The position numbers were made by a program, and so were the translations under genes. The notes below the pieces were generated by a model. The model saw only the letters and a list, made by a program, of their open reading frames with translations. It had not been told where the DNA came from and did no database searches. From positions 84,126 to 148,125 of IMG/VR virus record IMGVR_UViG_3300045988_116230: 64,000 bases of DNA; one strand, given 5' to 3'. Below, one piece after another: positions 12,558-60,169 of the stretch. Position 1 is the stretch's first letter, and each line of letters starts with the position of its first letter. This DNA is from a virus.

Positions 12558-12755
12558 ATGAGAATCAGTACCATCAAACGTAACAACAGCATTCATCTTA
12601 TGTATAAAAACATTATGAATGATTTAGGTCAATTAAGAACTGTAGTTTCAAAATCCTATATTTATAATCTGATACAAAATCAAACCGGATTAAGTATCAG
12701 AACTATATCCCATGTCTTGAATCACACAAAAGAACAGGATACAGATTCTTTGTGA
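12558..12755 (+). CDS. small protein with LacI-type helix-turn-helix at its C-terminus (NLIQNQTGLSIRTISHVLNHT resembles DIAKLAGVSxxTVSRVLN)
   Basis: motif similarity by eye; lies in a 630-nt otherwise non-coding region; true start probably an internal Met (~12600-12615). Confidence 0.3.
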   Translation: MRISTIKRNNSIHLMYKNIMNDLGQLRTVVSKSYIYNLIQNQTGLSIRTISHVLNHTKEQDTDSL

Positions 12756-12838
12756 AAAGCATACATTTTCATACATTTGTGTGTTCTTTAGTTTTTAGAT
12801 TTAAGTTTTTCATGGTATTAGTTTAGATTAGTGTAGAT

Positions 12839-12873
12839 CAGGGTTCGCAGTGATGCGGGCCCTGGTTTGATTT
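12839..12873 (+). terminator. strong hairpin (10-bp stem incl. two G-U pairs, loop AGTGAT) plus U-rich tail
   Basis: CAGGGTTCGC agtgat GCGGGCCCTG gtttgattt. Confidence 0.5.
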
Positions 12874-13041
12874 AAAAAGTATTAAAATATTTGCTATTTA
12901 AAATCCTGTTCCTATCTTTGCTCCAGAAACAATGAACAACGAGATCCCACCTCTGGTTGTTTGATGTTGAAAGATATTTTTGGCTCATTAGGGTTTGTCA
13001 TAGTGGGATCTGACATTCTCTTTTGGGCCTATTTTTTTATC

Positions 13042-13926
13042 ATGGATAAAGTTTCTGTTTTTGAAAGTTCGGATTTTGGAGAGCTTAGAATTATTGTAGA
13101 TCCAAAAGGAGATGTTTGGTTTGTGGCGTCAGATGTGGCTAAATCTCTTGGATATATAAATGCTAAAGATGCGGTAAAAAGACATGTAGATGATGATGAT
13201 TCTATGCTTTTGCAAGTATCTGATAATCAATGGGGCGTAAAACGATCTATATTGAAAACCAGATATATAGATAGTATAAGAATAATTAATGAATCTGGTT
13301 TATATTCTCTTATATTATCTTCAAAATTAGAGTCTGCTAAGAGATTTAAGAAATGGATAACATCTGAGGTTCTTCCTTCTATTCGTAAAACAGGAGAATA
13401 TAAAACAAGTTCAGGCGGCAAGGGAATTTTGGTTCCTGACTTTTCTAATCCAGCAGATGCAGCAAGAGCATGGGCCGATCAGTATGAAGCTGCTCAGAGA
13501 GCTATAGCTGAAAAATCTCAGGCAGAGGCAGAGAAGCAACAAGCCTTGAAAACAATAGAAGATCAGCGTCCAGACGTTGAGTTTGCAGAATCGTTCAAGA
13601 AAGTTGATAATGATAGAATGTGGCTGATTCGTGATATTGCCAAAAAGTTAGAACAGAATGGTGTTATCATCGCTGAAAAGAATCTTCGCTCATTTCTTGA
13701 AGAAGCTAAGTTTATGTTTAGAAACGGTCTTGGCAAATGGGAGTTGTACAGTAATGTAGTGGCTAAAGGATACGGTGTGTATAGATCATATTTTGTAGAC
13801 AAGTATTCTGGAGAAAGGGTTAATCAACAAACTATCTACATGACTGGTGCCGGATATGAAGTGACCCTCAATGGCATAAAAGGAAAACTTAAAAATGTAT
13901 TTTTAAAATATGGTAAATTTTCTTGA
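13042..13926 (+). CDS. Bro-N domain antirepressor-like protein (N-terminal Bro-N: ELRIIVDPKGDVWFVASDVAKSLGY; C-terminal KilA-C-like region)
   Basis: classic Bro-N/AntA signature; start moved to internal ATG at 13042 (track ORF starts 12961 with TTG and a hydrophobic junk N-terminus). Confidence 0.7.
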   Translation: MDKVSVFESSDFGELRIIVDPKGDVWFVASDVAKSLGYINAKDAVKRHVDDDDSMLLQVSDNQWGVKRSILKTRYIDSIRIINESGLYSLILSSKLESAKRFKKWITSEVLPSIRKTGEYKTSSGGKGILVPDFSNPADAARAWADQYEAAQRAIAEKSQAEAEKQQALKTIEDQRPDVEFAESFKKVDNDRMWLIRDIAKKLEQNGVIIAEKNLRSFLEEAKFMFRNGLGKWELYSNVVAKGYGVYRSYFVDKYSGERVNQQTIYMTGAGYEVTLNGIKGKLKNVFLKYGKFS

Positions 13927-13937
13927 GTTTATTTATA

Positions 13938-13976
13938 GGTAGTGTTTTAAAAGAATAAAAAACACTACCTTTTTTT
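13938..13976 (+). terminator. rho-independent terminator (11-bp stem GGTAGTGTTTT/AAAACACTACC + T7)
   Basis: read directly downstream of Bro-N gene. Confidence 0.65.
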
Positions 13977-14073
13977 GTTTCTGTCTTTTCTGAAAATACT
14001 TCTCTTCTATAGGAAATAAACACACCCATATTCCACCCTGCAATCATGATCTTTGTTACGTGCTTCATGCACG

Positions 14074-14094
14074 TATGTTTAACAATTAAATACT
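14074..14094 (+). repeat. copy 1 of exact 21-mer TATGTTTAACAATTAAATACT, 8 nt upstream of ATG 14103; contains TAtgTTTA (Bacteroidota -7-box-like) and a TTAA-N3-TTAA dyad
   Basis: identical 21-mer at 60450-60470. Confidence 0.6.
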
Positions 14095-14102
14095 ATAAAA
14101 TT

Positions 14103-15111
14103 ATGGGTGGTGATAAAATCGTCCTTTTAGATGGAGCCGGGGCTAACGGTGGTGGTGCAGCCACTAATGGTCTTCTTTCAATGATTCCCGGCATGTTTGC
14201 TAATTTGATAGGTGGTAATAAAATGGATCCGAATCTGGTGGCGGCTTTGATGAACGGTCGTAACAACCAGGACGGTTTCGGTGGGGCTAACGGTTGGTGG
14301 CTCTGGATAATTGTTTTGTTCTGGCTGTGGGGGTGGACGCGGCTTCGGTAACGGTTTTGGAAATGGCGGTGATTGTTGTGCCAATGGTTTGCCGGCTCAG
14401 TTGAATAACGATTACGGTCGTGAACTTTTGATGCAGGCAATTCAAGGTAATCGTAGCGCCATAGATCAGATTGCTTCTGCTTTGAACTGTTCTACTACTC
14501 AACTTCAAAACGCTATCTGCAACGTACAGGGTGCCATTGATAAAGTAGCTGGTCAGGTAGGTATGACTTCTCAGGCTGTTATCAACGCAGTTCAACAACA
14601 AGGTTGTGAAATAGGAAATCAAATCAGCTCTTGCTGCTGCAATCTGAGTTCGTTGATCAATCAAAGCACTTGCCAGACTCAGGGAATGATTACTCAGCAA
14701 GGTTTTGATAACCAGCTTCGCACGTTGGAACAAACCAATGTCTTGCAGAACGGTCTCAACCAAGGTCTGGCTAACAATCGTGAGCAAGCTACAAGCCAAT
14801 TCAATATCTTGTCTGCGAAACTTGACGCCCAAACCGTTATGATCAATGACAAATTCTGTCAGTTGGAAATGAGGGAGATGCAGAACACTATTGCTCAACT
14901 TCGTGAAGAAAAAGCGGCTTTGACAGCTTCGGCATTATCTCAGCAACAAACCCAGAATATCGTTGGTCAATTACGCCCGACGGCCGTCCCGGCCTACCCC
15001 TCTTGTTCTCCTTACCAGGCTTATACTTGGGGACAGGTATTCGGAGGAGGTTGCTGCAATAACGGATGTGGATGTAACAACGGATGTTGCAATAACAACG
15101 CTGCTGTCTGA
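14103..15111 (+). CDS. Gly/Cys-rich low-complexity protein: Gly-rich N-terminus, Trp-rich hydrophobic segment (WWLWIIVLFWLWGW), GFGNGFGNGGDCC block, Q/N-rich helical core with CC/CCC motifs, C-terminal GGGCCNNGCGCNNGCCNNN tail. Two track ORFs (14046..14351 frame 0, 14311..15111 frame +1) would fuse if the G5 run at 14329-14333 were G4
   Basis: both frames remain Gly-rich across the junction; frameshift or sequencing error at tgGGGGGtgg. Confidence 0.45.
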
Positions 15112-15134
15112 TTTTATTAAGAGAGGAGGCTAAT

Positions 15135-15548
15135 ATGGCTTGTGTTTCTAAAATAGGATCGTTGTATGAGATGGTTACGAAGAATGTTATTGTCAGTACG
15201 ACAAATACAGTCTTCGGTATTAACCCACGGGCTTGGATCGCCCTTCCGTGTGAGGGTCTTATCCTTCTTAAGATAAGGCAAGTAGTCCCCACAGCCGGAA
15301 GTGCTCTACCGGTACAGATTGCGGTCCCGGCAAACAGCACAGTTTCAACAGTAGGATCCGACACCTGTTGCCCGGTTACGGGAGTGAATGTCGTGAACCC
15401 TATTAACGTAGCTGTCACGGGTGCTGCTATGGTAAATGGCACAGAACGCCTTCTGTACTTCAATAAAGTTCGTGGCGTGTTAAGATTAATGGATTGTTGT
15501 GTTCCGACAACAACAGCCCAGGCGTCTGAAGTTAAAGCAGGTAAATGA
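15135..15548 (+). CDS. hypothetical protein with CC doublets (DTCCPVTG, MDCCVPT), beta-rich; strong GAGGAGG SD
   Basis: ORF track; SD 7 nt upstream. Confidence 0.5.
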   Translation: MACVSKIGSLYEMVTKNVIVSTTNTVFGINPRAWIALPCEGLILLKIRQVVPTAGSALPVQIAVPANSTVSTVGSDTCCPVTGVNVVNPINVAVTGAAMVNGTERLLYFNKVRGVLRLMDCCVPTTTAQASEVKAGK

Positions 15549-15598
15549 TTTCAGTAGGGTGATGAATATCATCACCCTATTTTCACCTAACTAATATT

Positions 15599-16093
15599 TT
15601 GATCATGTTTTCAGATTTGAAGAAAGGGTTTCAGGTACATACCCTTGATACTAATACAGTACCTAAATACGAATTGGGAAAGGTAGTAGCCGTATCCGAA
15701 CCCAGGTGTCTTCCTCCTCAGCCAGGTCAGTATCAGGCGATGCAGACCCGCGTGGTGGATCTGACGGTAGAGCTCACTGGCGAAACCAAGACCTATACGG
15801 TCCCGGAATCCCAGAATGTGGCTAAGGCTATGGGCATAACATTATCTACCAGCATAGATCCGATTATGAACGAACTGAATGCTATAAAAAACACCAGTCA
15901 AGACATAATAAACAGCGTAGATGCCCATCGTGCCAAGATAGAGGCTTGTGAATCTATATTAGAAGACATCAATCCGGCATTCAAACAAACGAGAGAGCAG
16001 GATCGTAAAATAGCTGGTATAGAAAATAAGGTGAATGACCTTACTGATTCATTCGAAGATTTAAAGAAGTTAATTGTAGAACGTTTGAAATAA
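15599..16093 (+). CDS. hypothetical coiled-coil protein
   Basis: ORF track. Confidence 0.45.
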   Translation: MIMFSDLKKGFQVHTLDTNTVPKYELGKVVAVSEPRCLPPQPGQYQAMQTRVVDLTVELTGETKTYTVPESQNVAKAMGITLSTSIDPIMNELNAIKNTSQDIINSVDAHRAKIEACESILEDINPAFKQTREQDRKIAGIENKVNDLTDSFEDLKKLIVERLK

Positions 16094-16100
16094 GTATAAT

Positions 16101-16469
16101 ATGATAGTATATGATTTAAATTCAGGACACAGAGAATATCTTGGATATGACGAGATAGAAGACAGACGAGGTGGAGGCAGAGGCAGAAGCCGGCGTTCTG
16201 ATGGGACGTACATGGGGTATGGTGGTGGTATTTACGACCATTACGGTATGCATGAGAAGATGAAAGAAATGGAAGAGCGCGAAAACGAGCTGGAAGAAAG
16301 GGAAAGAAGGCTCGAAGAGCGCGAACGTCGTCATGAAATGGAGGACCGGGAATACCGGAGGATGGGTTACGAATCCTACCCGACCGATTACTATGGAGAC
16401 GACAGATACTACGGTGACGGACCTCAGATGCGTAGAGGTCGCGGACGTGGCAGAGGTCGTTCTTATTGA
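16101..16469 (+). CDS. Arg/Gly/Glu low-complexity protein (RGG/RGRGRGRGR termini, ERERR repeats)
   Basis: ORF track; composition read from translation. Confidence 0.45.
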   Translation: MIVYDLNSGHREYLGYDEIEDRRGGGRGRSRRSDGTYMGYGGGIYDHYGMHEKMKEMEERENELEERERRLEERERRHEMEDREYRRMGYESYPTDYYGDDRYYGDGPQMRRGRGRGRGRSY

Positions 16470-16562
16470 GGAGCAGACGCAGAGGGTCCAGCTTATCAGA
16501 AATATGTAGATACTTACGGCTACCATTTTTCTAATGCTCTCGCTGATGAGGCGGTAAAGAAG

Positions 16563-16856
16563 ATGGTCAACGTCGATGGATCCAAGAGGATCTGGAAGCA
16601 GCCGGAAATAAAAGATATTTTTGAAAAGTGCGGAGCGAAGAAGCCGGATAAAGCGACATGGGGCAATGTCCAATATGTCTTTGCAATGTACTATTCGGAT
16701 GGTTTTCCGAAGGTCTTCAAATGTGAGAACGAGTTGGTGAAAGCTACGTTAATGTATTTGGATGATCCGGATGCTCCCGAAGGAGTAGCCTTTATAAGAT
16801 GGCTTGCCGTGCAAGATTACCTCGGCGAAAAAATAAACTGGAAGGATCTGACCTGA
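16563..16856 (+). CDS. hypothetical protein
   Basis: ORF track. Confidence 0.4.
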   Translation: MVNVDGSKRIWKQPEIKDIFEKCGAKKPDKATWGNVQYVFAMYYSDGFPKVFKCENELVKATLMYLDDPDAPEGVAFIRWLAVQDYLGEKINWKDLT

Positions 16857-17021
16857 GATCCAGACCCAGGTCCTTCCGGTGGTGCGGGAGCCATAGTAAA
16901 AAATATGATTCCCGCATTCCCGTTTTTCCCGTTTGGAAAAAAAAGGAATAAAAATATTATACCGGTCGGCGGGCAATAGAATACCCGTGGCCGGTTTGTT
17001 TCACATAACTTTTTTTTTGAC

Positions 17022-17198
17022 ATGAATATAGCACACGAATCTAAATCGAATAAAACCCCATTGTATTTAATAGGAGAGTTGATTGGCGTACCGAATACGG
17101 TTATGGACTCAGCATTGCATGAACTGAAAGATAGAATAGACAAAGACCCTAAATATAAAGATGTTAAAAATTGGCTCGAATCTTTACCCAAGATCTGA
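17022..17198 (+). CDS. small hypothetical protein (58 aa), not in track (<60 aa)
   Basis: clean ORF ATG..TGA followed by terminator. Confidence 0.3.
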   Translation: MNIAHESKSNKTPLYLIGELIGVPNTVMDSALHELKDRIDKDPKYKDVKNWLESLPKI

Positions 17199-17220
17199 AC
17201 CTATTTTTCCCAATACCAGG

Positions 17221-17250
17221 CCCGATGCGATTTTAGCGTATCGGGTTTTT
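17221..17250 (+). terminator. rho-independent terminator CCCGATGCG-attttag-CGTATCGGG-TTTTT
   Basis: read directly. Confidence 0.55.
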
Positions 17251-17325
17251 ATTTTAATTCATATTGTTTTATTTTAAATCTAATTAATTTATGAATGTCG
17301 TACTTTTGTTGAAAAAGTATTTTTT

Positions 17326-17553
17326 ATGGAAAATAAGGAAGATTACGTTGGTTACGAAGATCAAGAACTGTGTAACCGGTATTACAAAGAGGCTGAAGCC
17401 ATGAGGCAAAAGCAGGACTGGTCTCGGCTTAGGGCTGTCCCTGCTCCGGCCAAGGGAACGCCATCGCCCGGCTGGGGTCAGCTTGGACGTGGAAGTGATG
17501 TCCGTGTTAAGTATGTGAGTATCAATTCAGGATTGGGGGGAGATAGATTATGA
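17326..17553 (+). CDS. hypothetical protein
   Basis: ORF track. Confidence 0.4.
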   Translation: MENKEDYVGYEDQELCNRYYKEAEAMRQKQDWSRLRAVPAPAKGTPSPGWGQLGRGSDVRVKYVSINSGLGGDRL

Positions 17554-17768
17554 CCGTAGAAGAATTAGCTAACAAAAGATACGGTGGCGAATTTGTTTTC
17601 ATGTTTGGTCATCTTGAAGGTAGAACAAGATTCGTTTTTGAATGCTTTGATCCTAAACCTGATTACGAAGGTAAAAGCACTTATATGGTTTCCTATTTTG
17701 AGAAGGGACTTTGCAGAAGAGATGTGGTAGATGTGCCGTGTTATATGAATGTTTTGCCAAAATCATGA
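17550..17768 (+). CDS. hypothetical protein
   Basis: ORF track; ATGA-type overlap with previous. Confidence 0.4.
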   Translation: MTVEELANKRYGGEFVFMFGHLEGRTRFVFECFDPKPDYEGKSTYMVSYFEKGLCRRDVVDVPCYMNVLPKS

Positions 17769-17968
17769 AAACACTACTTTTAAATGTACCTGTATTTTCC
17801 GGTAAGATTATTTCTCCTATATGGATTAAGGCCGTAAGAGATTTTCAATCCAAATCCAAGTCAGAAAGAGACCTGTATTGTTCGATCTGTGGATGTGCAG
17901 GAGGGTGTAACTTGTGTAATGATATAAGTAAGTATAGGATTTCAGAACAATTAAAATATTACAAATAA
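17765..17968 (+). CDS. hypothetical Cys-rich small protein (CSICGCAGGCNLC)
   Basis: ORF track 17711..17968 trimmed to internal Met. Confidence 0.35.
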   Translation: MKTLLLNVPVFSGKIISPIWIKAVRDFQSKSKSERDLYCSICGCAGGCNLCNDISKYRISEQLKYYK

Positions 17969-18246
17969 TGGAATTAAAAGATTTTAAAGATGTAATTAGA
18001 ATGATGACAAAAGAAGAGTTCGAATCAACAATTGAAGAAGATATTAAATTCGTTGAAGGATTCAAGTATTTCTTAAGACATGATGATGCTACAAGGATAG
18101 TGGAACACATCAAGTCCGTGTTAGAAGCATCAGTGGACTACTATTATCCTAATCATCCTAAACCTGAAGCAGAACCAGGAGACATGGGAGAAGTTTCTGA
18201 TGGATACCACACTTTCAATATCCGAAATAACATTAAAACAATATAA
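17968..18246 (+). CDS. hypothetical protein
   Basis: ORF track. Confidence 0.4.
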   Translation: MELKDFKDVIRMMTKEEFESTIEEDIKFVEGFKYFLRHDDATRIVEHIKSVLEASVDYYYPNHPKPEAEPGDMGEVSDGYHTFNIRNNIKTI

Positions 18247-18515
18247 TTTCATTATAAGGTTTTAATGTACCAGAAATGGTCCGGATATTAGCCTAAGCCT
18301 TGAAACGAAGGCTACGTTATTTGAGAATATATAGTTACCTACGGATGTTTGCCCAAGTCTGTAGCTCTAAGGCAAGCGATTAAACAGGAGTAGTGTATTT
18401 GCGAAACAGTGTTGCTTGCATCAAAACCTCTTATAACATTGGCGATGGGTACTAACAGGATGAAATATTCCTGACTTATGTTGAATAAACATTGAAAACG
18501 TTTGTAGATATGGTG
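18247..18515 (+). ncRNA. candidate omega-RNA (IscB guide RNA) region: ~260 nt non-coding, hairpin-rich, immediately 5' of and abutting the IscB start
   Basis: position relative to iscB as in known OMEGA systems; hairpins such as GCCTT-gaaacg-AAGGC; no comparison possible. Confidence 0.3.
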
Positions 18516-19730
18516 TACGTACAAGACATAAATGGTAAACCTATGATGCCTACAACAAGGCATCATAGGTAAGACGACTGCTTAAAGAAAACAAGGCAGT
18601 TGTTGTGAACCTATGTCCGTTTACCATCAAATTAATGTACGTAACATCTGATTACAAACAAGAAATTGTGTTAGGCGTTGATGCTGGTACTAAACATGTT
18701 GGTTTATCAGCAACGACGAAAAGCAAAGAGCTTTACAGCAGTGAAGTTATTCTTAGAAATGATATCGTAGATCTTTTGTCTACCAGAAGAGAGCTACGGA
18801 AAGCAAGACGGAACAGGTTAAGATATAGAAAACCTCGTTTTGATAACAGAGTAAAAAGCAAGCGTCTAGGATGGATAGCACCTTCGGTGAAATACAAAGT
18901 AGACGCCCATATTCGTGTTGTTGAAAATGTTTGCTCTATATTACCAATATCTCGTATTGTTATTGAAGTAGCTCAATTCGATACTCAAAAGATTAAGAAT
19001 CCTGAGATATCAGGTAAAGAATACCAGGAAGGTGATCAACTTGAGTTTTGGAACACAAGGGAGTATGTTTTAGCAAGAGATGGACATAAATGCCAGTATT
19101 GTAAAGGCAAGTCAAAAGATTCTATACTGAATGTTCATCATATTGAGTCTCGAAAAACCGGAGGGGATTCCCCTTCTAATCTTATAACTTTATGTGAAAC
19201 ATGTCACAAAGAATACCATAAAGGTAATATAGATTTAAAGATCAGAAGAGGCAAGTCGCTTCGCGACGCAACCGTAATGGGAATTATGAAATGGAGGTTG
19301 TATGAAGAGTTAAAATCCAGATACGACAGAGTTTTTATGACGTTTGGTTACATTACGAAACATAATCGGATTAAATATGGGATTGAAAAATCCCATACAT
19401 CCGACGCGTTTGTCATTTCTAAGAATATTAATGCGAAACGAATCGAACGTCAATATTTAAAACGTTTAATTCGTAGACATAATAGACAAATACATAAAAT
19501 GAAAATTTTAAAGGGGGGGGAAGAAGAAAAACAATCAAGCTCCTTTTGAGGTTTTCGGTTTTAGGTTGTTTGATAAAGTGTTGTATAACAATAAAATATT
19601 CTTTGTTTATGGAAGGAGAAAATCAGGGAGTTTCAATATCAGGGATTTCAACGGAGAAAATTCAAAAGATGTTTCACGCAAAAAGTTTAAACTCATTAGA
19701 GGGAAGAGGCATCCGATTATATTAAAGTAA
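18510..19730 (+). pseudogene. iscB: IscB-like RNA-guided nuclease (PLMP N-term, RuvC-I, RRxRR bridge helix, RuvC-II, HNH, RuvC-III, C-terminal domain) interrupted by two frameshifts. Segments: 18510-18569 (frame 0), 18569-19520 (frame -1, the 314-aa track ORF), 19521-19730 (after a G8 run 19513-19520)
   Basis: motifs read from translation; details in the IscB finding. Confidence 0.65.
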
Positions 19731-19767
19731 ATGAACGGATTTAATAAATTTAATAGAAAAACGTATC

Positions 19768-20073
19768 ATGTATAATAAAGAAATAGTAATATGCGCGGCC
19801 ATCTGGGTGCAGGACGGCAAGAAGCGTCCTCATCAGCCCACCAATATACCATCCGGCGCCGTATTTTGTGGATTGAGACATTGTTCTATCATTTCTCAGT
19901 TTGCGGCATACGGTATAGCTCATAAAAACCGCAGTGTTCAAGGATTTTTGACAAGCAAGAACCGGTTTCTGACGAGAGAAGAAGCGTCTGAGCTTGTTAA
20001 GAACAATAATCAGGAGATGGTAGTAGATAGGAATGCTATTAGAGAACAATTGTATTCAGAAGATTTATATTAA
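19768..20073 (+). CDS. hypothetical protein
   Basis: ORF track. Confidence 0.45.
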   Translation: MYNKEIVICAAIWVQDGKKRPHQPTNIPSGAVFCGLRHCSIISQFAAYGIAHKNRSVQGFLTSKNRFLTREEASELVKNNNQEMVVDRNAIREQLYSEDLY

Positions 20074-20090
20074 CTAAAAAACAAAACAAC

Positions 20091-20441
20091 ATGGGGTTTA
20101 AAATCAAAAAGTCAATCATTTATAATATGATGAACGGCAGTCGGGTAGAGTACGAATTTGACAACAAGAATTTAGATCATATCACATTTAAAGGTGATGG
20201 TAAAGAATCTTTTTCATTTAACAGAGTACTTGTTGAAAATTTAATTGAAACATTTGAGACTATGCAGGATATATACTCTGATAATTACGGAATTAAGGTT
20301 TATACCGGTAATTGCATAATTCAATTGAACGTAAATCCAAAGGACCCCAGTGAATCCTTTTTTGACGTATATGATAGAGATGAGATGAAATTGATATACG
20401 GAATAAAGATCAGTATTCTGAAAGAAATGTTTATCATATGA
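20091..20441 (+). CDS. hypothetical protein
   Basis: ORF track. Confidence 0.45.
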   Translation: MGFKIKKSIIYNMMNGSRVEYEFDNKNLDHITFKGDGKESFSFNRVLVENLIETFETMQDIYSDNYGIKVYTGNCIIQLNVNPKDPSESFFDVYDRDEMKLIYGIKISILKEMFII

Positions 20442-20755
20442 TTACCAAGCAGGACATACAAGCAGCAGCATCGTATATTTTCCGAAGCAGTTTTGTCTCG
20501 GAGGACCAGGCAAGGAAAGCAATGGTAAAAGCCGGCAATAACGCTACCAAGATCCTCGTCAAGACCTTTAGAGGCAAGTTGTTCAAGAAAGCTTTTGAAA
20601 GAGCCCGTAGAGGAAAGGATATCAGTTCTTTTGAAAGACAGGAAAAAGAAAGTGGTTTCAATTTTCTACATAATCCTAATAATGGTCGTATGCAAAGCGG
20701 TCATATTATAATAGATGGAATTGGTCTGTTTAAACAAATAATTCATGAAAGGTAA
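20438..20755 (+). CDS. hypothetical basic protein
   Basis: ORF track. Confidence 0.45.
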   Translation: MITKQDIQAAASYIFRSSFVSEDQARKAMVKAGNNATKILVKTFRGKLFKKAFERARRGKDISSFERQEKESGFNFLHNPNNGRMQSGHIIIDGIGLFKQIIHER

Positions 20756-58813: not shown

Positions 58814-59264
58814 GCAAAAATTTAAAAACGACCTTCATTACATTTCCAAAGTTCTCCACCTTAACCCACTCGTGAGCTACTGCTCTAAGTACGGATGTTT
58901 CGTATGTCGGAATATCGTCTTCTTCAACCACCTTACAAGAAGCCAGAACTCCTTCAGTCGGCTTTAGTCCGAGGTCATGCAGCTCGCAGAGACCGCCCGG
59001 CTGGCGGAATGCGCACCACCCGTCTTTTTCTGTTGGCTGGATCATCGCTATTGGTTTTTCTTTCACTGCAAGATACCCGACCATCCACATTGTTTCTTTT
59101 AACCTGTCAGCGTATCCGGCATCTATGATAGCCTCTATGTCTTTTGGCGTACCAATACAAGGAACCTTACACATATTCTTGCATTTATCACATGTACAAG
59201 GTTGCTCCCATCTGTTATGATCTATGCCAACCAACTTCTTTATCCGTTCTACTTCCTCTTTCAT
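58791..59264 (-). CDS. hypothetical Cys-rich protein
   Basis: ORF track. Confidence 0.45.
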   Translation of the reverse strand: MKEEVERIKKLVGIDHNRWEQPCTCDKCKNMCKVPCIGTPKDIEAIIDAGYADRLKETMWMVGYLAVKEKPIAMIQPTEKDGWCAFRQPGGLCELHDLGLKPTEGVLASCKVVEEDDIPTYETSVLRAVAHEWVKVENFGNVMKVVFKFLHENERRK

Positions 59265-59545
59265 ACTTCTTTTGTTAGTTCATCATAATAAGCTTTCAGT
59301 TCCGGTGAAGCGTATTCCATAAATGCTTCAAACAAGTAGGGTACCTCTATTATCATATTCACATTACAACCTTCTGCCTGTGAAAGCAATTCAGGATCAT
59401 TACTGTACAGACACGCAACATGAGCACCTATATTAAATACATGCAAATCTATCCTTACGTATTCTATACATGAAGACAATGCATTAAACAAATTCTTTAC
59501 TTCATTCTTGTCAAAAAGTTCTACAAATTCTCTCAACCCCATCAT
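59261..59545 (-). CDS. hypothetical protein
   Basis: ORF track. Confidence 0.4.
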   Translation of the reverse strand: MMGLREFVELFDKNEVKNLFNALSSCIEYVRIDLHVFNIGAHVACLYSNDPELLSQAEGCNVNMIIEVPYLFEAFMEYASPELKAYYDELTKEV

Positions 59546-59925
59546 TTTACTACCCTTTCTATGTGTTTAATTAATACTACTGCCATCCCCTTACCTGTTT
59601 TTATCGCACATTCCGATCCTTTTATCCATTCTACACACCCTACATACTTTTCTGTAGAATGAAATCCGGGATTGTATTTTCCAGATGTACTGAACTCTAC
59701 CGTATCCCCTACCTTCAGATCATCAAAAGCAATAGACCATGTGGTCCAAATTCTATCATGTCTCCCAGGCTGAATGGCTCCAATTACGCCCTTCTTACGA
59801 CCGTTTTTTATCGCCCTTAGTATTATCTTTCTATCATCTTCGATAAGGCTGCAAAAGCGCCCGTAAAAGGTCAAATCAACCTGTTTTCCTCCTATTTCTT
59901 CTCTTATTTTTGTTATTCTGTTCAT
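59542..59925 (-). CDS. hypothetical protein (possibly PUA/ASCH-like fold)
   Basis: ORF track; weak impression only. Confidence 0.4.
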   Translation of the reverse strand: MNRITKIREEIGGKQVDLTFYGRFCSLIEDDRKIILRAIKNGRKKGVIGAIQPGRHDRIWTTWSIAFDDLKVGDTVEFSTSGKYNPGFHSTEKYVGCVEWIKGSECAIKTGKGMAVVLIKHIERVVK

Positions 59926-60169
59926 TTTCTGATTTTGTTTTATTTTTTTCTTTGTTTTTTCTATCTTCTATAGAAGATGATAATAACATTATCTTTTCTA
60001 TGTTACTTTTTGACTGTAAAAAAGAATCGCATTTCATTACTACTACCACCTTCTTAAGTTCCCCATTATCGTATAGCGATACACGCATCATGTTTTGCAC
60101 CTCGTCCACTATCAGACCTGGAGTAGTCTTAGCCATTTTGCGTAGCTTATTATACTCCGGTCTTTCCAT
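59876..60169 (-). CDS. hypothetical protein
   Basis: ORF track. Confidence 0.35.
   Translation of the reverse strand: MERPEYNKLRKMAKTTPGLIVDEVQNMMRVSLYDNGELKKVVVVMKCDSFLQSKSNIEKIMLLSSSIEDRKNKEKNKTKSENEQNNKNKRRNRRKTG

Follow-up and report, generated by a model that had tools for sequence, protein, structure and literature searches.

Results

Organization of the island

The window, a 64,000-nt stretch of viral DNA, comes from an epsilon crAss-like phage and is 97.6% identical to crAssE-Sib. Within it a run of plus-strand genes, here called A to E, is bounded by two intrinsic terminators (Table 1), and none of 200 shuffled sequences folded as stably as either of them. The left one ends the upstream antirepressor (Bro-N/KilAC) gene and forms the left border of the island. 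The initial annotation had described a unit of four genes between strong terminators. The terminators hold up, with 12-bp stems and z-scores of -4.4 and -4.8, and the gene count has to be revised, as the interval holds A (split), B, C, D, E and a 58-aa ORF. A further strong, terminator-like hairpin 3' of E is the right end both of the conserved cassette described below and of an island of codon composition, in which the GC3 of A to E is 0.41-0.53 as against 0.26-0.36 in the flanking genes. This deviation is confined to the epsilon genus of the window; the cassette does not show it in general. The strong hairpin between B and C could be a terminator or attenuator within the island, setting the A-B pair apart from C-D-E. 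A Bacteroides-type promoter pattern precedes gene A; it was matched 9 times across the whole window with 5.4 matches expected, and the match at gene A is not significant on its own. A scan of the island against Rfam detected no RNA family. In the window the neighbours of the island are large structural genes, and the lysis genes are not adjacent.

Table 1. Features of the island and its borders, numbered from the first letter of the window.
Feature	Position	Strand	Description
Left intrinsic terminator	13937..13976	+	12-bp stem (13937-13970) then U7, -14.2 kcal/mol, z -4.4
Promoter-like motif TTTG-N20-TATGTTTA, Bacteroides-type	14052..14081	+	About 20 nt before gene A ATG; weak pattern match
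Gene A, split	14103-15111	+	5' and 3' fragments in two frames; restored protein 335 aa (P0001)
Gene A, 5' fragment	14103..14351	+	DPNLVAALMN motif, Gly-rich stretch, Trp-rich hydrophobic segment, premature stop
G5 run	14329..14333	+	One extra base relative to G4 of intact alleles; alignment with crAssE-Sib
Gene A, 3' part, +1 frame	14332..15111	+	phrog_16490 match; family alignment; AF2 model
Gene B	15135..15548	+	137 aa; predicted beta sandwich, CC doublets conserved
Strong hairpin between B and C	15553..15581	+	13-bp stem, -18.5 kcal/mol, z -5.2
Gene C	15605..16093	+	162 aa; beta-rich N-terminal part, C-terminal coiled coil
Gene D	16101..16469	+	122 aa, charged, RG/ER/Y-rich; conserved TGA stop at 16467-16469
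Post-TGA segment	16470..16562	+	31 codons in frame with D, no start codon; conserved DUF7841 N-terminal part
Gene E as annotated	16563..16856	+	97 aa from internal ATG; DUF7841 domain
Terminator-like hairpin (about 16882-16917) plus U run 3' of E	16882..16930	+	Predicted fold
58-aa ORF	17022..17198	+	No family match; absent from the cassette as found in other phages
Right intrinsic terminator	17218..17258	+	12-bp stem (17218-17248) then U-rich run, -17.4 kcal/mol, z -4.8

Gene A encodes a conserved protein with one membrane-type segment

The ORF that starts at 14046 or 14103 and closes at 14351 ends in GWWLWIIVLFWLWGWTRLR, whereas the +1 frame reads on as GGGRGFGNGFGNGGDCC, through the CCC triplet, to GGGCCNNGCGCNNGCCNNNAAV at 15111. 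The 3' part carries a GFGNGFGNGGDCC linker, a helical region with the motif NNDxGRELLMQAIQGN, the invariant CCC, a INDKFCQLEMREMQN motif, a P-PAY stretch and a Cys-rich tail. The restored protein contains 17 Cys residues and is rich in Gly (13%), Asn (12%) and Gln (11%). The first gene had been described as Gly-rich, with a Trp-rich hydrophobic helix, short repeats, multiple CC/CCC motifs and a distinctive tail; all of these are present in A, where the repeats read GFGN and the tail is rich in Cys, and indeed every sequence feature reported for the island lies where it had been placed. Residues 37-328 of A align to positions 6-284 of the 286 positions of PHROG 16490 (E 3.6e-43; function not annotated). 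The A family counts 926 representatives. Among 35 of its sequences (31-78% identity) the CCC triplet shows no or almost no variation.

The Trp-rich segment GFGGANGWWLWIIVLFWLW has a Wimley-White octanol energy of -14.4 kcal/mol. With a 19-residue window five copies of A showed a hydrophobic segment of -10 to -16 kcal/mol and B to E all remained above -2.3, so that a membrane-type segment is found in A only among these five proteins. A 15-residue scan detected a similar segment across 51 members of the A family. It lies about 60 residues from the N-terminus between Gly/Asn-rich linkers, and its flanking charges lean weakly towards an N-out/C-in orientation. Members are 300-335 aa long, with one hydrophobic segment followed by a domain of about 250 residues. 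AF2 predicts a long helix (157-290; mean pLDDT 60, low confidence outside the helix). Foldseek of this model against the PDB gave no match at E <= 0.001, and nothing significant was found for A among PDB profiles, the best hit having E 0.011 over about 40 residues.

The low-complexity parts of A are short linkers and tails whose sequence differs between subfamilies. Its Gly-rich stretches (GFGNGFGNGG; GGGCCNNGCGCNNGCC), read from the sequence, are 10-20 residues long and without triplet periodicity; Pfam gave no collagen match, and neither an extended Gly-X-Y array nor any other regular repeat array was seen in A. The initial annotation had named a known repetitive fibre family lacking conserved Cys motifs as the outcome that would speak against it; no collagen or fibre assignment was obtained, and both CCC and CC are conserved.

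Databases label A as "spike glycoprotein" or "viral fiber". These labels rest on non-significant coiled-coil matches; they are coiled-coil artefacts and no evidence of homology, and they mislead and are being propagated in annotation. A does share with class I fusion "spike" proteins and with reovirus and rotavirus fibres heptad-repeat helices rich in Q/N/A/I/L, a hydrophobic segment and Cys-rich stretches at both ends of the helical region (in A these are GDCC, some 14 residues beyond the hydrophobic segment, and the C-terminal tail). The matches cover about 40 residues and are not significant (coronavirus S2 HR1, E 0.011-0.3; rotavirus VP4, about E 0.8), and there is no fold match.

Genes B and C

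B, annotated earlier as beta-rich with CC doublets, is indeed predicted as a beta sandwich (pLDDT 79, pTM 0.72). Four of its 6 Cys form the CC doublets 78-79 and 121-122, which are invariant within the B subfamily. The predicted fold weakly resembles domains of tail fibres and receptor-binding proteins; PDB profiles gave nothing significant. The type of the A tail co-varies with the type of B, from which we infer that B is a partner of A. In C the coiled coil seen earlier is C-terminal and follows a beta-rich part. Residues 1-156 of C align to positions 1-162 of the 181 positions of PHROG 28898 (E 2.9e-19; function not annotated), and in the same phage records this match falls within about 1-1.5 kb of the A match. 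Against PDB profiles C gave coiled-coil matches that were not significant and no others.

A conserved, in-frame TGA separates D from E

D is composed of 20% Arg, 16% Gly, 16% Glu and 12% Tyr, so the earlier description as RGG/ER-rich stands. The protein, which had been said to look almost eukaryote-like, belongs to a conserved small family with a helical N-terminus and charged repeats of the Y/M-GER type and is physically linked to E. In other cassettes the D slot is likewise held by a small charged protein. E, as the 97-aa ORF, matches Pfam DUF7841 (PF25223) with E 3.9e-8 and 34.0 bits, the gathering cut-off being 25.2 bits, and also phrog_38431; PDB profiles gave nothing significant. When the 31 codons after the TGA are added, E aligns along the whole DUF7841 family and matches its invariant Y, F and A positions. 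The annotation of this gene in epsilon phages is therefore too short by this alignment.

The junction, with the context Y-TGA-GGAGCAGACGC, is conserved in 79 loci of both epsilon genera, and the 31 codons (pN 0.23, pS 0.87) are equal to E proper in this respect. The single frame across a conserved TGA suggests stop-codon readthrough that would yield a D-E fusion. We found neither a SECIS-like element nor any other RNA structure 3' of the D stop (z about +0.5), and no suppressor tRNA in the window or in a 60-100 kb stretch of crAssE-Sib. General recoding was rejected since D/E is the sole split ORF of this kind in the window. The D/E TGA is a candidate for single-site readthrough, the genetic code of the phage being standard elsewhere.

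Searches for function

Scans of A to E and of a sixth cassette protein, F (see below), against Pfam, NCBIfam and PADLOC gave no functional assignment and returned DUF7841 and weak coiled-coil noise. The sole PADLOC match was that of A to the tail of ZorA, a weak coiled coil (E 7e-4, 16.5 bits), with no match for B, D or E. Nothing significant was found for the HExxH protein F among PDB profiles, and sequence inspection of B, C, D and E revealed no signal peptide or lipobox. For none of the six proteins was homology to a protein of known function found. No family had been recognised at the outset either, and the genes are indeed real and conserved while belonging to no characterised family. Two identities were considered and rejected. 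A RiPP with a Gly/Cys tail similar to microcin B17 would have a "leader" of about 300 aa, and the cassette holds no modification enzymes. Nor does A, with some 250 residues after its only hydrophobic segment, fit a holin, which would be a small membrane protein with one to four TM helices and a short charged C-terminus; holins of the usual multi-TM kind have genes of their own upstream.

A widespread cassette

From the comparison of loci, the island is one copy of a conserved accessory cassette of five to seven genes that is common to many Bacteroidales gut phages. The order A-B-C-D-E is fixed in about 100 loci, and the picture of loose low-complexity proteins gives way to that of an operon. 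The initial annotation would have been weakened had the ORFs been missing from related genomes; A to E are kept there. In most other phages an HExxH protein of about 130-150 aa (F) comes after E, and a gene for a DnaA_C-like HTH protein of about 100 aa often precedes A. Carriers are found in three or more families of Crassvirales, in the epsilon group, among unrelated phages of 40-80 kb and as integrated prophages; among the prophage and non-crass carriers are those of Alistipes putredinis and Parabacteroides segnis. One carrier is cultured, phage C3_41T2LP (OR296439) on Bacteroides uniformis MB20-41, and it has A to F. Viruses assigned to Methanomassiliicoccales also have homologues of A. A tblastn search with A gave 32 matches in all, and PhiCrAss001 is not among them. 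Most matches in MAGs are crAss-like contigs binned as Bacilli, Clostridia and others and are unusable for host range. The literature on the phage names and on DUF7841 yielded nothing on the cassette, and the crAssE-Sib paper does not discuss its genes.

The cassette usually lies directly 3' of holin-endolysin-spanin genes. Several unrelated phages have a complete lysis cassette in front of it: in locus L094 it follows a holin, an M15 endolysin and a u-spanin with a lipobox and a C-terminal TM; in L123 a holin, an endolysin and a u-spanin; and in L185 a lysozyme and a u-spanin. It is also directly 3' of lysis genes in L101, L113 and L093, and adjoins holin, LysB-like or endolysin genes in the crAss genomes cr1_1, cr109_1, cr52_1, cr273_1 and cr116_1.

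Between the two epsilon genera compared, protein identity is 88% for A and 83% for B as against 30% for the flank. Synonymous sites are saturated (pS 0.76-0.81) and pN is 0.10 for A and 0.12 for B. Saturation together with the high identity of A and B indicates, as judged from these substitution rates, that purifying selection on the cassette proteins is strong, and strongest on A and B. The same saturation led us to drop a recent horizontal exchange of these two genes between the epsilon genera as the sole cause.

Gene A is disrupted in nature

The interruption of gene A at the G5 run, seen in the initial annotation, was confirmed: crAssE-Sib has G4 and an intact gene, and the window carries one extra G. 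In the IMG/VR epsilon loci that were fetched A is uninterrupted in 80 of 80, a ranking of loci that favours intact copies. The exact 82-aa frameshift product is found on 34 public contigs, and the likewise exact 266-aa and 226-aa products on 7 and 16 contigs, respectively, so that the G5 run is not a private error. On the evidence of these contigs the frameshift is a null allele circulating in nature. Other null alleles of A or of the cassette comprise one IS insertion and several truncating alleles, and 39 distinct deletion junctions were mapped. Some disrupted alleles sit on contigs of 140-157 kb, and on such genomic grounds the cassette is dispensable for the phage. About 12 odd-length variants were seen for A as against about 3 in the top 120 matches of a control gene (18605-19549), a comparison that is only indicative as the control is a mobile HNH/RRXRR endonuclease that has over 8000 relatives. 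Since gene A is null here, this genome probably has a cassette of no or only partial activity.

Discussion

What would pass for four "hypothetical proteins" is one portable operon, found in several families of crassviruses, in further phages of Bacteroidales and in prophages. It can be recognised by the DPNL motif, the Trp-rich anchor, the invariant CCC and INDKFCQLEMREMQ.

As to its role, our leading suggestion, which we put forward tentatively and with less than even confidence, is that the cassette encodes an accessory complex that is portable, expressed late, tethered to a membrane and directed at the host envelope. The Trp/Phe-rich segment would tether A to the cytoplasmic membrane, and A could oligomerise via its helix of about 130 residues, the oligomer being stapled by the invariant CCC and the Cys-rich tail, which might otherwise bind metal. 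The small beta sandwich B would dock on the C-terminal tail of A, C could contribute a second coiled coil, and D and E, partly as a readthrough fusion, would be soluble partners. Made late, such a complex may act on the cell envelope around lysis, with possible roles in egress or lysis timing or in the exclusion of other phages, and would not be part of the capsid. In favour of this reading we count the conserved gene order, the frequent position next to lysis genes, the membrane-grade segment seen in A only, the moron-like layout in the window, the selection on A and B, the dispensability and the pairing of A with B. Podovirus-type Crassvirales share the cassette with phages and prophages outside the crass group, and a function directed at the host agrees with this better than does a component that has to dock on one particular virion. 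If the assignment to Methanomassiliicoccales hosts is right, a role specific to the Gram-negative envelope becomes less likely. Other points also count against the envelope complex. No homology ties any of the six proteins to a function; the cassette of the window lies away from the lysis genes and among large structural genes; the weakly fibre-like fold of B and the tail-fibre genes near several loci favour a virion fibre; the charges around the segment in A favour one orientation only weakly; the AF2 model of A has low confidence outside the long helix; and the segment in A could be buried in an oligomer or be the membrane-inserting part of an ejected virion protein.

That virion fibre is the strongest rival, possible though we doubt it. 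The cassette would then be an auxiliary fibre or adhesion module, with A as a trimeric coiled-coil shaft held by CC/CCC "knots", B as the distal knob, C as an adaptor coiled coil and D to F as assembly helpers, exchanged among phages that share hosts and losable like side tail fibres or head decorations. The long helix in A, the Cys doublets at domain ends and the weak resemblance of the C coiled coil to others, many of them trimeric, agree with this, as does the lack of a signal peptide in any component, which is expected of virion proteins. Moreover, the second epsilon genus has a 674-aa fibre-repeat protein two genes downstream, and convergent tailspike-like genes of 750-970 aa adjoin the cassette in the L131-L191 group. 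The coiled coil joined to a small beta sandwich of weakly fibre-like fold, the putative late expression, horizontal exchange and natural frameshift alleles recall dispensable fibres such as lambda Stf/Tfa, T4 fibritin and collagen-like fibres with C-terminal knobs; laboratory lambda carries a frameshift in stf, and frameshift and deletion alleles are typical for such fibres. The cassette differs from them, however, in having no Gly-X-Y repeats and in encoding the knob-like protein as a separate polypeptide. The conserved membrane-grade segment of A also argues against a fibre, and the cassette is found in phages of very different virion architecture, on each of which a docking site would be needed. 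In many loci, furthermore, it follows lysis genes and includes the HTH gene and the HExxH protein, unlike fibre operons, and we found no virion proteome of a phage that bears the cassette.

Returning to the membrane-tethered complex, it may form a three-part system of Cys-stapled A-B-C, a D-E pair joined by UGA readthrough and a metallopeptidase-like partner, which would be strongly selected across Crassvirales and unrelated phages and yet repeatedly switched off in nature by frameshifts, deletions and IS insertion. As a whole this remains speculative and we give it a rather low probability. Strong protein conservation combined with frequent natural knockouts points to a conditionally useful function, and such a pattern would be expected if the product were useful in some hosts and a liability in others, for example as a trigger of host defence. 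Phage C3_41T2LP makes this idea directly testable.

The initial annotation proposed that the Gly/Cys-rich and RG-rich proteins form cross-linked or phase-separated material, be it an inclusion, a condensate or a coat layer. The Cys clusters may be cross-linked by disulfides or metal, and their conservation, the low-complexity Gly/Asn/Gln/Cys segments of A, the RGG/ER-rich disordered D and the lack of export signals in any partner are in line with such a material. As an account of the cassette it is nevertheless improbable, given that A, B, C and E are mostly ordered, conserved and strongly selected, that A has a membrane-type segment and that there is no sign of bulk expression; that the cassette moves between phages of unrelated type further argues against a coat component.

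It is still less probable that A is a lysis protein of spanin or holin type, with an inner-membrane anchor and a periplasmic, Cys-bearing coiled coil as in an i-spanin. A shares with the two-component lambda Rz/Rz1 and the unimolecular T1 gp11 a hydrophobic anchor, a long helix, conserved Cys and adjacency to lysis genes, often those for holin and endolysin. We reject the spanin reading because separate and convincing u-spanins, as well as holins, are encoded just upstream in the same phages (L094, L123, L185). A is also about twice the size of an i-spanin with an internal anchor, has no lipoprotein partner, shows no detected sequence similarity to spanins and is often null in otherwise complete genomes. 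That the ORFs are pseudogenes or junk in decaying DNA is hardly credible: the frameshift in the gene A of the window, the deletion junctions and the many truncated alleles would fit, but the identity of A and B despite saturated synonymous sites contradicts it, and so do the large A family, the gene order kept across distant phages and the intact state of most copies, with the same reservation on how the IMG/VR loci were ranked.

Among known systems phage morons such as lambda bor and lom, HK97 gp15 and P2 old/tin come close to the cassette, which like them stands as a unit of its own between terminators and shows a promoter-like motif (not significant here), deviant codon composition (in this genome), patchy spread, a position after tail and lysis genes and dispensability. 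It differs from them in comprising five to seven genes in fixed order instead of one or two, in occurring also in crAss-like phages, which have no known lysogeny, and in its strong long-term purifying selection, and it has no homology to any described moron. In the window itself the moron-like traits are the terminator brackets, the cassette's own promoter-like motif and the deviant GC3.

Organization and distribution of the cassette

Folding placed strong terminators on both flanks of the island (13937-13970 followed by U7, z -4.4, and 17218-17248, z -4.8), and the composition of the proteins matched the initial annotation of four Gly/Cys- and RG-rich genes lying between terminators. The features described there were all present, but the list lacked the DUF7841 gene E and the hairpins after B and after E. 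B, first described as beta-rich, is predicted to fold as a beta sandwich (pLDDT 79, pTM 0.72), and the coiled coil of C follows a beta-rich N-terminal part. Genes A to E form a GC3 island (0.41-0.53 versus 0.26-0.36 in the flanks), within which the hairpin between B and C, which may be an internal terminator or attenuator, separates A and B, which are 88% and 83% identical across the epsilon genera, from C, D and E, where conservation is lower (59-66%).

Coordinates and sizes of features in the window and in compared loci (L-numbers); sizes of cassette proteins are ranges across loci
Feature	Position	Description
Bro-N/KilAC antirepressor gene	12961-13926	directly upstream of island
HTH gene	often before A	~100 aa, weak DnaA_C-type HTH match
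Gene A	14103-15111 (split)	about 290-335 aa
12-nt direct repeat GGGGCTAACGGT	14139-14150 and 14283-14294	within gene A
Gene B	15135-15548	about 113-180 aa
Hairpin between B and C	15553-15581	13-bp stem, very stable, z -5.2
Gene C	15605-16093	about 165-185 aa
Gene D	16101-16469	about 75-120 aa, small, charged
Gene E	16563-16856 as annotated	DUF7841, about 135-142 aa
Strong hairpin	after E	from folding
Gene F	usually after E	125-150 aa, invariant HExxH
HNH/RRXRR-type ORF	18605-19549	314 aa as called (GTG start)
A homologue, L005	5857-6780	Caudoviricetes sp. vir335
Fibre-repeat protein, L070	11385-13409	674 aa
u-spanin candidate, L094	6979-7383	upstream of cassette: holin, M15 endolysin, lipobox + C-terminal-TM protein (unimolecular spanin)
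u-spanin candidate, L123	3970-4377	upstream of cassette: holin, GH108-type endolysin, u-spanin
u-spanin candidate, L185	2500-2904	upstream of cassette: lysozyme, u-spanin
TnpB genes, crAssE-Sib	58986-60125, 64190-65413	

Over the 3.4-kb region, identity to phage csAssE-Sib (OR575929, 151 kb, human gut) is 97.6%. The publication of that genome under the name crAssE-Sib (PMC11054128) places the phage in the epsilon crAss-like group and in a proposed genus, Epsilonunovirus, without discussion of the cassette genes. In OR575929 gene A is a single CDS of 354 codons labelled 'spike protein/glycoprotein', followed by genes labelled 'hypothetical'. Large structural genes surround the island, with a muzzle protein, a tail lysozyme and several 2000-aa structural proteins upstream and another large structural gene downstream; its immediate neighbours are the antirepressor gene and small accessory genes. 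Of 41 near-identical IMG/VR loci, only between about a quarter and a third carry a full-length antirepressor gene, and its junction with the island is a variable accessory spot. The HNH/RRXRR-type endonuclease ORF has more than 8000 relatives, the close ones mostly of 406 aa, so that the ORF as called covers only part of that length.

Clustering at 50% gave 926 representatives of A homologues. Annotated matches include three Suoliviridae subfamilies, one Steigviridae genome, the non-crass Bacteroides phage C3_41T2LP, which has been cultured, lemur-gut viruses and viruses assigned to Methanomassiliicoccales. The order A-B-C-D-E is constant in the translated neighbourhoods of about 100 loci, and in the same phage records the match to C is no more than about 1-1.5 kb away from that to A. 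Integrated or isolate-associated copies were found in Alistipes putredinis, Parabacteroides segnis and P. leei. The archaeal-assigned tailed viruses vir335 and vir215 (the latter being hit H36) carry clear A homologues with CCC motifs and FCQIKSRE; the genes downstream of A differ in them. Among L088, L090, L096, L100, L107, L121, L122 and other loci, many ~99-kb crAss-like contigs sit in MAGs named Bacilli, Clostridia, Roseburia and the like, where they are likely mis-binned. Stop-codon-recoded crAss lineages are on record, and the fragmentation of cassette genes under the standard code in several loci is consistent with such lineages.

The hallmarks of A begin with an acidic N-terminal tail bearing a G-x-DPNL-x-A-x-MN motif, after which come a Gly-rich stretch, a Trp/Phe-rich segment of about 15 residues and a GNGFGG linker; its further motifs are NNDxGRxLLMQAIQGNxxAIxQLAxxLNC, an invariant CCC and INDKFCQLEMREMQNKI. 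It ends either in P-x-PAY and a Cys/Gly/Tyr-rich tail closing with CGC, or in a longer IKCKLPxTxxVPY region closing with GFWG. Cys-rich tails go with a larger, Cys-containing B and GFWG tails with a mostly Cys-free B of 113 aa (Spearman 0.58 over 20 clusters, not corrected for phylogeny). This correspondence and the hairpin after B led us to regard A and B as a pair.

Constraint and natural loss

When the window was compared with the Epsilonduovirus-type locus L070, synonymous differences were saturated (pS 0.76-0.87) and pN was 0.10 for A, 0.12 for B, 0.28 for C and 0.24 for both D and E. Low pN at saturated pS marks A and B as being under unusually strong constraint, and the saturation rejects a recent transfer between the epsilon genera as the sole source of their identity. 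A flanking protein of 752 aa is only about 30% identical between the genera.

The interruption of gene A at a G5 run, already noticed in the initial annotation, is due to one extra G, 14329-14333 being G5 in the window versus G4 in csAssE-Sib. Deletion of one G restores a 335-aa protein identical to the public protein P0001, which belongs to a 90%-identity cluster of 1072 sequences, and A was uninterrupted in each of 80 epsilon loci retrieved from IMG/VR by a ranking that favours intact copies. The exact 82-aa N-terminal frameshift product occurs on 34 public contigs (the longest of 148,300 bp), and exact C-terminal products of 266 and 226 aa occur on 7 and 16 contigs, which rules out a private sequencing error. 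The G5 frameshift is a circulating null allele of A.

Other broken alleles of A or the cassette include in-frame internal deletions and several N-terminal truncations. In near-identical public sequences, 39 different deletion junctions were mapped; the deletions span 0.4-5.2 kb, and their end points fall at 12.7-20.6 kb (12683-20582). The comparison of their frequency with that elsewhere is only indicative, the control gene for deletion excess being poorly chosen. Fusions on record join the antirepressor to A, A to B, C or E, and B to C, D or E. Some broken alleles lie on contigs of 140-157 kb and thus are carried by whole genomes. The cassette undergoes repeated natural knockout despite strong purifying selection. 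In the A-related protein P0548 (287 aa) exactly 48 codons are lost in frame between two copies of GGGGCTAACGGT, as expected if the deletion arose by recombination between them. In another relative, P0081, a TnpB gene of the IS200/605 type (PF01385, PF07282) interrupts A; this insertion and the two TnpB genes of crAssE-Sib point to the possible movement of an active IS in these phages.

The D-E junction

D and E share one frame, in which the TGA stop of D (16467-16469) is the sole separator. The 31 codons after it (to 16562) are open, contain no ATG, GTG or TTG, and specify the conserved N-terminal region of DUF7841. These codons evolve like coding sequence (pN 0.23, pS 0.87), and 79 loci from the two epsilon genera preserve the junction Y-TGA-GGAGCAGACGC. 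In cr1_1 an E-like and a D-like part are naturally fused. From these sequence features we infer that E is probably made, at least partly, as a D-E fusion by programmed stop-codon readthrough. The 97 aa annotated for E are too few. Searches revealed no hairpin after the TGA, no suppressor tRNA in the window or in the 60-100 kb stretch of crAssE-Sib and, in the window, no other gene split in this way by an in-frame stop.

Family searches and possible function

No family had been recognised from the sequence, and database searches bore this out: the only match for A is phrog_16490 and that for C phrog_28898, while E matches phrog_38431/DUF7841, all of unknown function, and NCBIfam and PADLOC scans added no assignment. 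Searching the PDB with a profile built from 35 diverse homologues of A gave only non-significant matches of about 40 residues, to S2 HR1 of coronavirus (E 0.011-0.3) and VP4 of rotavirus (E about 0.8). Such weak matches underlie the labels 'spike/glycoprotein' and 'outer capsid protein/viral fiber' on crAss genomes, which we reject as artefacts of coiled-coil similarity. In the AF2 model of A, confidence is confined to one long helix (residues 157-290), and a Foldseek search with the model found no match. In the literature we found no description of the operon, its hallmarks, the knockout polymorphism or the D-E junction. Judged by sequence and fold, the cassette fits no known kind of system, its families being on record only as PHROG and Pfam entries of unknown function.

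A hydrophobic segment of membrane grade is found in A alone (Wimley-White octanol energy of -10 to -16 kcal/mol in five copies, 19-residue window), and a 15-residue scan found a comparable one across 51 family members; B to E showed neither such a segment nor export signals. The flanking charges (+27/-30 before, +37/-21 after) and the acidic N-terminal tail lean weakly towards an N-out/C-in topology, in which case the Cys-rich coiled coil of A and all its partners would be cytoplasmic.

In unrelated phages the cassette directly follows a complete lysis cassette (L094, L123, L185; L101, L113 and L093 are similar), and in crAss genomes it adjoins holin, LysB-like or endolysin genes. Since holin and u-spanin are encoded separately upstream, A is rejected as a spanin or holin. 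We tentatively favour, as one possibility, an accessory complex that is portable, made late, tethered to the membrane and aimed at the host envelope, because of the membrane segment of A, the occurrence in phages of different build, the tendency to follow lysis genes, the frequent presence of a regulator-like gene and the dispensability of the cassette. Such a complex might act on the timing of lysis or egress, or in exclusion.

Directly after holin and endolysin genes, Bacteroidales phages and prophages encode proteins of ~134 aa that carry a lipobox at the N-terminus (e.g. AMSSC, LFGSC, LTGC) and a TM helix at the C-terminus and are good candidates for unimolecular spanins. Tail-fibre-like genes are also frequent neighbours of the cassette. 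In L070, of the second epsilon genus, a protein of tail-fibre repeats (GLVPAPAAG...FLRGDGTW) lies two genes after the cassette, an arrangement absent from the window's genus.
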